A stretch of 64,000 bases of DNA, from sequence record KP682386.1; one strand, given 5' to 3'. Origin of the DNA: Escherichia phage PA36. This document shows, one piece after another, positions 45,001 through 48,000 of this stretch (position 1 is its first letter; every line of letters begins with the position of its first letter). Made by a program: the position numbers.

Positions 45001-48000
45001 ATTGTCAGGGGAACGAACCCTGGTGTTACGACGGTTTATGCTTTCGCGAATATGGTTACTCCACCTTCTGAGTATGGTATCGCCATGTATAACCCGGACG
45101 GTGAGATGATTTATCATGGCGAAATGATGCTGCTTGACGCGAAGTTAATACCTGTTGATATCAAATTTGAAAAGGACCTTGGATATCCATGCGCAATCAT
45201 GCCTGCACTGGTCGGGTATTATAACTGGAAAAGAACTCCTTATGATCGACCGATTTATACCACATCCACTGGTGCTACAGGAAATAAAATATATTCCTGT
45301 GAGCATTATTCCGGTGGTGCAACATGGGATATTCGAAAGCCGTATATAGATAAGGTCCTGGTTATTAATACATCAGTATATGATTAGTTGAAGCGAGTCT
45401 TTAATATTCATTTAAAATGTCTAAAAAGATGTATTATTAAAAAGTTTAGCGTGTTATCTGAATACAGGATATCTTAAATGAAGAGTATAGCAACACTGGT
45501 TGTGTGTGCAATCTCCGGGATTGCCTGTGTAAATTTATCTGCACATGCAGCAGAAGGAGAGCATACAATTTCTCTGGGGTATGCGCACTTTCAGTTTCCG
45601 GGACTGAAGGATTTTGTAAAGGATGCGACTGCTCATAACAGGGAGACTTTCAGTCATTTCGTCAACAGAAACTACTTTTCTTCATTGGGCGAATATACAG
45701 ATGGTCGGGTCAGTGGATATGAAGGCAAGGATAAAAATCCACAGGGCATTAATATCAGGTATCGCTACGAGATAACGGATGATTTTGGCGTTATCACCTC
45801 TTTTACATGGACGCGTTCTCTCACTAACTCACAGACATTTATTGATGTGCAGTCAGCCGATCATACCAGGAAGATTAAGAATCCGGCAGCTTCTGCCAGA
45901 ACGGATATCAGGGCGAATTACTGGAGTCTGTTAGCGGGGCCTTCATGGCGGGTTAATCAGTACATGAGTTTATATGCGATGGCAGGGATGGGCGTTGCTA
46001 AAGTTAGCGCTGACCTGAAAATTAAGGACAATATTAACAGTAGTGGCGGATTTTCTGAAAGCAACAGCACGAAAAAAACCTCCCTTGCGTGGGCTGCAGG
46101 TGCACAGTTTAACCTGAATGAGAGTGTTACACTGGATGTGGCTTACGAAGGTTCCGGCTCTGGCGACTGGCGCACGAGTGGCGTTACTGCTGGCATTGGC
46201 CTGAAATTCTGACCTGTATCCGGTAACCGTTTACTACCCGCTGTGATGGCGGGTTTTTTATTGCCCGTACAGGGCAAAAACCGTAAATTATGCGTGGGTG
46301 CCTTTCGGCTGATGGCTGGAGGGTGAACCTGAAGGCCTGATGTGGAAAGGCCCCGAGTCAACTTAACGTTAACCCGAGGCCCTAACACTTCGTACCTTAA
46401 GCAAGTAGAAGGTTAGCGCCTCTCTGTAAAAGGAGTCAAGCGCTATGTCGCAAAAATCGCTTATCACCGTCACAATTTGCATGACGGTTATCTTCACCAT
46501 CTGGATGTTGCACGGTTCACTGTGTGAGTTCCGGCTGAATTTGTGGGGAGCGGAGTTTGCGGCGTTCTTACAGTGTAAGCAGTAGGAAAACCGCGACGGG
46601 GACGAGAGTCCCCGTCAACTGGTTGCTGAGGTTCAGCCGATATGGCACCCGTTTCAGGTGAGAGAATGAACGATAAAATTCTCTGGTATATGCAGCGTGT
46701 TGTGAGAAATTCCCGCAACCCTGAATTTATGAATGAAGTTAAAGACGCCTGCCTTAAAAAGCAGGCGTTTTGTTTTGAGGCACCTGATGGCTTTTTGGTG
46801 CTGCGTTCTGTGCTCAGTGCTGATGGTATCCCTTATGTTCTGGTGTTGCTGGGCGTGTGTACGGGGAGTAACAGCGTTGAGCGTTACCTGCCGGAGGTGA
46901 AGACATTAACCCATCTGGCTGGCGGACGCTGGGCTGAGTTCCATACGGCAAGGCGGGGATTTATCCGGCTGGGAAAACGACTGGGCTTTGAGCGAATGCC
47001 GGATGATGAGGATGGCTTCATGGTGTTCAGGATAGCGGTCTGACTGCTACAGTTTTCATCATTGTGTTTAAACCAACATTGTAATTCACATTCTGACCCT
47101 GCTCCGGCAGGGTTTTTTGTTATCCAGGGGGCCATTATGGGTGGAAGTAAAGGCGGTGGTGATACCAAAGTAAAACCAACAGCAGCGCAAATAGCACAGG
47201 AAGAAGTGGCCTGGAAAGGGTGGCAGGATTACAAAAATATCCTCCGCCCGGCTGAAGATAACTTCATGGAAAAGGTCGATGACCTGAACAGTGAGCAGCA
47301 GTACGACAATATTGCTGGCACCACAAATCTGGGGTATCAGAAACAGTTTGGCGAAGCACGGAAGGAGCTTGCGGGTAATCTTGCTCAGTCCGGCGTTGAC
47401 CCATCCAGTGGTCGTTTTAATGCGGTAATGAATGCGAACCAGAGTGACCAGGTAACCGGGCAGATTGACACAACCACACGGGGGCAGGTATCGCAGGCAG
47501 ATAAGTATGTTGCCGGGCTACAGGATGTTGCTGCTCTCGGTTCTGGTCAGAAGGCGGATGCGTTACAGAGTTTTAACTCTCTGGCAGACAGCAGTCTGGC
47601 AAAAGCTAAATCGGATGCACAGGCGGCGTTTACGAAACAGCAGGGGCGAGCCTCTCTTGTTGGCGCTGGTCTGGGTGCGGCAGGTGCATATGCGATGCAT
47701 AAGGCTGGCGGTAGCGGAGGAAGTGGCGGTGCTAAAACACCTGGCACCGGCGCTAATGCCATTCAGCATCAGGCTCAGAACTGGAGACTGTAATTATGGA
47801 GTATGGCAAATACGAAACTCTCGCAAGGGCTGGTTATTCAGGAGCAGACCGCCCACAGGGTGACTGGCAGACGTCAGCAGCGCTGACACGCCAACAATAC
47901 GACGACTGGCGAACCAGATATTTGCCCCGCGTGGCAAGGCTGGCTGACCTTGGGGAGAACAACAGTCTGATGAATGCACAGCTTGCACGGGTGGGAGGCC

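Follow-up and report, generated by a model that had tools for sequence, protein, structure and literature searches.

A probable second hok/sok-type cassette downstream of lom in an Stx2 phage, with EcOnc53/24B_1 as its candidate antitoxin

The virulence of enterohaemorrhagic E. coli is driven by Shiga toxin 2 (Stx2) phages, whose induction and lysis set the amount of toxin released. Does such a phage carry, behind its lom gene, a type I toxin-antitoxin (TA) system in addition to the known hokW-sokW? The question arises from a small open reading frame (ORF) in Escherichia phage PA36 (KP682386.1), of which we analysed a stretch of 64,000 nucleotides, here called the window; all positions refer to it. 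An earlier note, made from the sequence alone, had described this ORF as an unannotated hok-family toxin gene and had expected an antisense partner. We consider it probable (roughly 0.75) that positions 46261-46650 form a complete hok/sok-type type I TA cassette, a second locus distinct from hokW-sokW, with the RNA published as EcOnc53 or 24B_1 as its antisense RNA. The locus is like hok/sok in five of the six architectural features that can be examined in a sequence; the remaining one, a mok frame, fails.

The hok-like ORF extends from the ATG at 46445 to the TAG at 46583-46585 on the + strand and comprises 46 codons, as the earlier note had it, encoding the peptide MSQKSLITVTICMTVIFTIWMLHGSLCEFRLNLWGAEFAAFLQCKQ. 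A longer N-terminus is excluded by an in-frame TAA at 46427-46429. The strong ribosome binding site reported for it is present as the Shine-Dalgarno (SD) sequence AAAAGGAG (46428-46435, +), 9 nt before the ATG, and its GGAG is kept in relatives. The claimed transmembrane helix followed by a Hok/Gef core was likewise borne out: residues ~5-23 are hydrophobic (15-residue Kyte-Doolittle means of up to 2.25), the C-terminal part reads SLCEFRLNLWGAEFAAFLQCKQ, and the Pfam profile hidden Markov model HOK_GEF (PF01848), a check that had been proposed for this gene, matched residues 8-44 to profile positions 6-42 of 42, scoring 33.2 bits (E=4e-8) where the gathering score is 22. PHROG 251 matched the peptide with E=2.8e-24, and the best NCBIfam match was HokA. 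Within the core lies SLCEF, which agrees with the (S/D)LCE motif, and its C27 is invariant across 32 aligned sequences including HokW. A profile built from the family itself found exactly two ORFs in the window, the hok-like ORF and hokW.

Using the peptide as query, we found at least 56 homologues at E<=1e-3, and the identical protein is present on at least 1000 contigs. These homologues make up a tight subfamily of 46-aa proteins, present in E. coli, Shigella, Salmonella, E. albertii and Citrobacter, in which the tail GAEFAAFLQCK is near-invariant; judged by sequence, the peptide is a member of a distinct Hok subfamily of this length. Among 14 diverged DNA copies, 13 have an intact ORF, and the ratio of non-synonymous to synonymous differences (pN/pS) ranges from 0 to 0.45, which together with the conserved subfamily indicates that the peptide is under selection. 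One allele, found in phages phi367 and phi296 (L008 and L009), has 17 residues changed and retains the hydrophobic helix and both cysteines. This allele is a mosaic: in its leader and 3' end it barely differs from the window, but substitutions are dense in codons 2-38 (pS 0.59, pN 0.27), a pattern suggestive of recombination with a different hok allele. In the Stx2a phage Stx2_5122 (L006, LC616046, locus ~890-900), an extra G in a GGGG run shifts the frame by +1 and yields 44 aa with an altered C-terminus. Could the ORF have arisen by chance in an intergenic spacer, beside hairpins unrelated to it? It is very short, and the original annotations of 933W and Phi24B did not call it. This explanation, to which we give a vanishingly small chance, is refuted by the Pfam score above the gathering threshold, the homologue set and the subfamily alignment, and the collinearity of the surrounding elements with hokW-sokW speaks against it too. 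Judged by its sequence, the small gene after lom (46445-46585, +) is a real gene of the Hok family of membrane toxins, with a predicted N-terminal transmembrane segment.

On the opposite strand, a predicted promoter with the -35 box TTGACT (46439 to 46434), an 18-nt spacer and the -10 box TAACCT (46415 to 46410) occupies 46410-46439 (-), and its -35 box overlaps the SD of the toxin gene. AGGTTAGCGCCTC of this promoter is invariant in 14 relatives, and the -10 box lies within AGGTTAGC, the same motif at the homologous position as the -10 of sokW, whose TAACCT, when mutated, unleashed HokW toxicity (PMC8621323). Folding and published RNA mapping place a Sok-like antisense RNA of about 67 nt at ~46403 to ~46337 (-), the ends being approximate. 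It is predicted to consist of a 12-nt single-stranded 5' tail, UGCUUAAGGUAC, and a 16-bp hairpin followed by UUU (-32.5 kcal/mol, z=-5.25). This tail, the most variable part of the RNA among relatives, shows complementarity to the loop at the apex of a hairpin in the toxin mRNA leader. When each sequence was folded separately, the antisense hairpin formed in all 14 relatives, with differing apical sequences; RNAalifold recovered only the basal 12 pairs plus one compensatory pair, MAFFT having put the apical arms out of register. That is, a cis-antisense RNA with its own promoter is predicted, complementary to the leader upstream of the SD. The antisense RNA expected in the earlier note is there; the note had placed it within 46390-46600, and it lies in the mRNA leader and merely grazes that interval.

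This antisense RNA coincides, by sequence mapping, with one that is already in the literature. The 20-nt 'microRNA-size' RNA 24B_1, TAACGTTAAGTTGACTCGGG, matches 46352-46371 (-) exactly and covers the loop and the 3' arm of the antisense hairpin. It was reported in phage Phi24B 'between lom and vb_24B_43' (PMC4426718); mapping its sequence reproduced the published Phi24B coordinates 45692-45711, and Phi24B holds an identical, unannotated 46-aa ORF. The boxes given for its promoter p24B_1, TTGACT and CGCTAACCT (Nejman-Falenczyk 2015, PMC4426718), are those of the antisense promoter at 46410-46439, and the 81-nt 'precursor' made in vitro maps to 46401 to 46321. For the precursor RNA, an Hfq dissociation constant of 25 nM was reported. 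According to a review by Sy and Tree (PMC7873438), the 24B_1 precursor is EcOnc53, which was detected by Hfq cross-linking and analysis of cDNA (Hfq-CRAC) and on Northern blots, and sRNA108; the length is 67 nt by differential RNA sequencing (dRNA-seq) and Term-seq. The same authors regard the 20-mer as a likely degradation product and its mechanism as unclear. In the searchable full-text literature, outside of which lie most subscription journals and T1TAdb, no link between 24B_1 or EcOnc53 and hok/sok was found. The 24B_1 and EcOnc53 papers that we searched contain neither 'hok' nor 'sok', and 'antitoxin' occurs only in the title of an unrelated reference of a 2025 review; a 2017 mini-review names 24B_1 and Sok as unrelated RNAs. 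We regard EcOnc53/24B_1 as the probable antitoxin of the hok-like locus.

Upstream of the toxin gene, a sigma-70 promoter is predicted at 46261-46289 (+), with the -35 box TTGCCC (46261-46266), a 17-nt spacer and the -10 box TAAATT (46284-46289). Both hexamers are retained in relatives (TTGCCC/TTGCCG/TTGAAA/TTGCAG and TAAATT/TAGATT/TAGAAT/TAGAGT), separated by a diverged spacer of 17-18 nt, and this conservation leads to a predicted +1 at the GGGUGCC of 46296. The argument for both promoters relies on conservation and on homology to the sokW -10, which is validated, and makes no use of consensus strength. At minimum, the mRNA would span 46296-46650 (+), from this start to the end of the 3' element fbi (fold-back inhibition). 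Its actual 3' end is probably further downstream, at a terminator-like hairpin with a T-run at 46745-46775 (readable on + and -), inside an L0129-like ORF (46642-47043, PHROG 610, function unknown). In the Stx phage no terminator directly follows fbi, whereas cassette copies outside Stx phages have a canonical one 25-60 nt after it; the hairpin at 46745-46775 may end the transcript in lysogens. The Rfam model RF01794, which describes the sense-strand hok leader, aligned to 46296-46458 from end to end (model positions 1-157; 35.6 bits, E=1e-5).

In the model of the Gerdes laboratory for plasmid R1, the full-length hok mRNA is untranslatable with its ends paired and is activated by 3' processing. 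We folded the predicted mRNA of the hok-like gene. Its tac-like (translational activator) 5' element (46296-46312, +) begins with GGGTGCC, invariant in 14 sequences, and pairs in the full-length RNA with the fbi-like 3' element UCAGCCGA..GGCACCC (46633-46650, +), which is complementary to the 5' end, has an invariant GGCACCC and overlaps the annotated start (46642) of the next ORF. The ucb-like element (upstream complementary box) GAAAGGCCCC (46345-46354, +) is near-invariant, belongs to a 5' hairpin of the truncated RNA (mRNA positions 1-59) and matches the first hairpin of the Rfam leader model. Between ucb and the start codon, the antisense-target hairpin GAGGC-C-CUAAC/GUUAG-C-GCCUC (46376-46422, +) appears in the consensus and in truncated-RNA folds; it exposes the apical loop CUUAAGCAA, to which the antisense 5' tail is complementary, and its stem is invariant or shows one-sided changes only around a variable apical region. 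The full-length RNA (46296-46655) folded at -155.4 kcal/mol (z=-6.9) with tac paired to fbi. When the RNA was truncated in silico (46296-46620), the 5' end (46296-46306) re-paired with ucb and the target hairpin was free. End pairing and refolding, both hallmarks of the R1 paradigm, were thus found in these folds, which follow the same conformational logic as the full-length (FL-hok) and truncated (Tr-hok) forms described for hok mRNA.

Comparative folding gave a similar picture. Without prior input, RNAalifold recovered from 14 full-length mRNAs the 5'-3' end pairing, the target hairpin, the sequestration of the start codon and a 3' stem-loop, with 96.9% of cells paired across the consensus structure. 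The end pairing (46296-46312 with 46633-46650) amounts to 14 pairs; its helix 1 is invariant, and helix 2 shows G-C to G-U exchanges and one two-sided change. The start-codon region (46445-46462) pairs with the 3' coding segment GAGCGGAGUUUGCGGCGU (46548-46565, +), and this predicted pairing would account for the near-invariant nucleotides of the segment. This helix, the seventh of the consensus, has 16 pairs (96.9% of cells paired, one two-sided change) and persists in the full-length and the truncated single-sequence folds. Behind the stop codon, the 3' stem-loop (46595-46616, +; nine pairs, 100% paired in the alignment) carries three compensatory pairs, A-U to G-C in five sequences and C-G to A-U/G-C in seven; trimming from the 3' end, by which fbi would be lost, is likely to halt there. 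Two-sided changes affect 10 pairs of the whole structure, versus 5.8 in shuffled alignments (5 of 500 shuffles reach 10) and 2-4 in slid controls.

The absent feature is mok. The leader ORFs enumerated in the window, in nine of 14 aligned relatives and in Phi24B include none that consistently reaches the SD. One short leader ORF in the window, with a GTG start and 24 codons (46342-46416, +), ends with a TAG at 46416, 14 nt before the SD; we rejected it as a mok equivalent, as it stops short of the SD and neither its frame nor its start and end point are kept among the relatives or in Phi24B. In the R1 paradigm, mok overlaps hok and is the direct target of Sok. Hok synthesis in R1 depends strictly on translation of mok up to the SD (Le Rhun et al. 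2022, PMC9841398). Without mok, the coupling of the antisense RNA to translation must differ from that in R1, and the locus is possibly a mok-less variant of hok/sok.

The missing reading frame is one of several observations that weigh against a complete hok/sok-type cassette: in the window, no ORF reads into the SD (46430-46435). Several scores stay below the thresholds of the closest models, namely 38.4 versus 89 bits for the HokA equivalog NF007290, 22.7 versus 73 bits for the Hok subfamily NF007279, and 35.6 bits versus a gathering score of 59 for RF01794. A scan of 46150-46850 with the sigma-70 consensus (9/12 threshold) returned no promoter-like site; the sense promoter has 8/12 consensus matches, the antisense -10 has 3/6, and the transcript start at 46296 is itself a prediction. 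Only three U follow the antisense hairpin. The consensus structure was evaluated on the same alignment from which it had been derived, and tac:fbi, tac:ucb and the target stem are for the most part without variation; their support comes from conservation and not from covariation. In neither predicted conformer is the start codon free. Finally, the equivalence of EcOnc53 and 24B_1 rests on the statement in PMC7873438.

How would such a cassette work? In lysogens, the antisense RNA would pair with the leader of the processed mRNA and silence it through cleavage by RNase III, through a block of translation, or both. Should the antisense RNA fall behind, the peptide would be made and would insert into the inner membrane, dissipating the membrane potential and lowering ATP. 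A shortfall of this kind could follow prophage induction, when Q-antiterminated late transcription may read through the lom terminator on the same strand. With no mok and an antisense RNA that ends 27 nt upstream of the SD, control might operate by RNase III-dependent decay or by occlusion of a standby site. Alternatively, the peptide might be expressed chiefly from the Q-antiterminated late transcript, which would swamp the antisense RNA and yield duplex fragments like 24B_1; this option would explain such fragments, and the 20-mer appeared in no sample other than that of 80 min after induction (PMC4426718). The abundant 20-nt 24B_1 would most simply be a stable remnant, either of the antisense hairpin or of the duplex of sense and antisense RNA.

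Is the toxin made at all? The locus might be a silenced relic, descended from hok/sok, in which the toxin is untranslated, selection keeps a trans-acting, Hfq-binding EcOnc53, and the ORF and the mRNA structure persist mainly through the overlapping or flanking sRNA (small RNA) gene. A relic would be in keeping with the lack of the mok frame that R1 requires, with the pairing of the start codon in both conformers, with the binding of Hfq to the antisense RNA, with the frameshifted ORF of one Stx2a phage and with the reported inactivity of the chromosomal hok loci of E. coli K-12 (PMC7232551). Given that the AUG remains paired after truncation in silico, the cassette's own transcript might yield the peptide rarely or not at all. 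Yet the ORF lies outside the sRNA gene and is nevertheless intact in 13 of the 14 copies, across four genera, at the low pN/pS given above and with a near-invariant C-terminal domain; even the strongly diverged phi367/phi296 allele keeps the helix and the cysteines. Moreover, promoter, SD, fbi and 3' stem-loop would have no role for a trans-acting sRNA and are conserved all the same, the stem-loop with compensatory changes. On balance, we think a silenced relic unlikely.

A different account is given in the 24B_1 literature, where the 20-nt RNA, reported as the first functional 'bacterial microRNA', derives by cleavage from an 80-nt precursor and regulates in trans like a microRNA, and the neighbouring ORF is irrelevant. 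It is said to repress d_ant and sdhB, to favour lysogeny and to lower ATP. After induction, 2223 identical 20-nt reads were obtained (PMC4426718), the phenotypes of the delta-24B_1 mutant were complemented by a plasmid, and a weak gel-shift was seen with sdhB mRNA; but the binding to sdhB was below 10% at 100 nM, the d_ant site was predicted in silico only, the review by Sy and Tree takes the 20-mer for a probable breakdown product, and the perfect target in cis is left unexplained. The reagents do not separate the sRNA from the toxin gene. Mapping of the recombineering arms showed that delta-24B_1 removes 46244-46434 and leaves the ORF. With this segment, the mutant loses the 3' half of the lom terminator, the promoter and the entire leader of the hok-like gene, the antisense gene and all but the last base of the SD. 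Conversely, the complementing or 'overproducing' 24B_1 plasmid spans 46133-46698, that is, the whole cassette (566 bp with the 2015 primers). The descriptions of this insert differ: a 2023 paper (PMC10732415) states that pUC18_24B_1 carries 'the 189-nt region', the primers of PMC4426718 amplify 566 bp, and Sy and Tree give 566 nt. For delta-24B_1, less lysogeny, faster induction and lysis, and lower survival were reported; cellular ATP was lower with the cassette-bearing plasmid or prophage, and a metabolic shift was observed with the plasmid. These phenotypes are not assignable to the 20-mer, because the deletion and the plasmid also alter the hok-like gene. The drop in ATP would be the effect expected of a Hok-type membrane toxin, with which it is compatible, though confounded in the same way. 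A microRNA-like regulator as sole actor is quite improbable in our judgement. We tentatively propose instead, at somewhat less than even odds, that 24B_1 is a decay fragment of the Sok-type antitoxin EcOnc53 and that its phenotypes stem wholly or largely from an unrecognised mok-less Hok-family toxin encoded 42 nt downstream.

The main value of these results is the identification of EcOnc53/24B_1 as a probable antitoxin, which offers a testable reinterpretation of 24B_1. The RNA gains a perfectly complementary target in cis that can be examined directly, and the existing 24B_1 deletion and plasmid turn out to be confounded, both also altering a putative membrane-toxin gene. If the cassette functions as proposed, Stx phages carry two orthogonal hok/sok modules, and the phenotypes of delta-hokW-sokW were measured with the second system present; such knockouts still carry it, which could explain partial phenotypes. 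The locus would also provide a natural mok-less case for studying how Sok-type RNAs control Hok translation without coupling through a leader peptide.

The window is the DNA of a 933W/Sp5-type Stx2 phage. Upstream, a lom-like gene (45478-46212; Pfam Ail_Lom 1.5e-32) ends in an intrinsic terminator found by a terminator scan (46236-46260, +), with its stem at 46236-46254 followed by TTTTTT. The position given in the earlier note, after lom and between this terminator and the stem-loop behind the stop codon, a classic place for morons, was confirmed. As far as sequence can define it, the cassette is a moron of about 390 bp (46261-46650) between lom and the next late gene. When the Stx-phage copies were aligned with those of P2-like phages (P88 group) and of enterobacterial chromosomes, homology began at the -35 box (46261) and stopped at the GGCACCC of fbi (46644-46650); the end at fbi holds for the P2-like phage, Salmonella, E. 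albertii and Citrobacter copies. Copies of this mobile moron, with its sharp promoter-to-fbi boundaries, occur in podoviral Stx phages, in P2-like phages and on enterobacterial chromosomes. Over the 501 bp around the ORF, the window is 100% identical to 933W, VT2-Sakai (Sp5) and many other Stx1- and Stx2-converting phages, and of 5426 complete E. coli genomes, 417 contain the region at a coverage of at least 80%.

That the gene is unannotated, as had been claimed, is true of old records (933W AF125520 and Phi24B HM208303) and false for RefSeq/PGAP, where the protein is named 'Hok/Gef family protein' (WP_000078907.1); Pharokka labels it 'MokW-like host killing', and some sources 'protein HokA'. 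As an annotated ORF the gene is not new, and we found no study of it. The earlier note had overlooked this annotation, as well as hokW-sokW and the published antisense transcript.

Some copies deviate or occur in unexpected places. In Salmonella enterica subsp. diarizonae (L019), the sequence is unalignable with the other copies upstream of ~46338, and GGGTGCC lies about 20 nt nearer to the ORF; this copy may have a rearranged or variant 5' leader. Three copies lie on contigs labelled Xanthomonas pisi, Planococcaceae metagenome-assembled genome and Vagococcus (L013, L014 and L016), of which the first, 857 bp long, is 100% identical to the Stx-phage sequence; these are probably assembly contamination. 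Elsewhere in the window, two identical-scoring matches to the ALIL (apical loop-internal loop) pseudoknot, a frameshift element of the IS3 family, at 25187-25303 (-) and 49176-49292 (+) point to two insertion sequence (IS) copies in inverted orientation, one of them about 2.5 kb downstream of the hok-like locus. Other Rfam matches at the gathering score lie at 17144-17342, 22248-22507, 7877-7935 and 20591-20839. The additional RNAs were c4-a1b1 (the a1/b1 targets of C4 antisense RNA), isrK, C4 antisense RNA, STnc100 beside AsxR, the lambda cIII thermoregulator and three tRNAs, a content typical of Stx2 phages.

How does the locus relate to the systems already known? EcOnc53, sRNA108 and the 24B_1 precursor (Tree 2014; Gruber and Sperandio 2015; Nejman-Falenczyk 2015; Bloch 2023) are, by mapping, the same RNA as the antisense RNA predicted here; as published, it is a trans-acting, microRNA-like or Hfq-dependent sRNA, and in the papers searched it is not described as a type I antitoxin. 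On the protein side, HokA, chromosomal in E. coli K-12, is the best-scoring named subfamily, with a model of 50 positions (NF007290) versus our 46 aa; identity with HokA was rejected on the 38.4 bits that face an equivalog cut-off of 89. We also rejected identity with hokX, a 153-nt, 50-aa gene in the cysH-iap region.

With hok/sok of R1, the locus shares the end-paired, untranslatable full-length mRNA, its activation by 3' processing, the antisense RNA against the leader and the antisense -35 box over the hok SD, here as predictions. Unlike R1, it has no mok frame reaching the SD, and it is a phage moron co-oriented with the late operon rather than plasmid-borne; in the Stx phage it also comes without a terminator of its own, the next terminator-like site lying about 100 nt downstream inside the following ORF.

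The closest comparison is offered by hokW-sokW, which lies in the same window at 60558-60882 (-), where the Rfam sok model scores 113.5 bits. In the Sakai prophage Sp5 it has been characterised as a type I TA system by which the release of phage is promoted (Takada et al. 2021, PMC8621323); the paper does not mention a second locus. We rejected the possibility that the hok-like ORF is hokW itself, given that the primers of that study map to 60693-60877 (-) and that HokW is a protein of 51 aa beginning MKQQKAM. An in-frame ATG 57 nt upstream of hokW provides a MokW-type N-terminal extension. The two loci thus differ in that hokW has such a frame and the hok-like locus has none, and in their Rfam scores (113.5 versus 35.6 bits); hokW is encoded on the other strand, towards the far end of the window, and hokW-sokW has been tested experimentally, whereas the hok-like locus is known from sequence. 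The proteins are 33% and the DNA about 41% identical, HokW being RelF/HokC-like and the 46-aa peptide HokA-like. Nevertheless, their elements are collinear: GGGTGC at the 5' end, AAAG(G)CCCC as ucb, the GAGGC..GCCTC target hairpin, the antisense -10 TAACCT in its shared sequence context, an AAGGAG SD and GCACCC in fbi. The antisense RNAs are also close in length, about 67 nt versus the 71-nt complementarity of sokW, and Hfq is involved with both.

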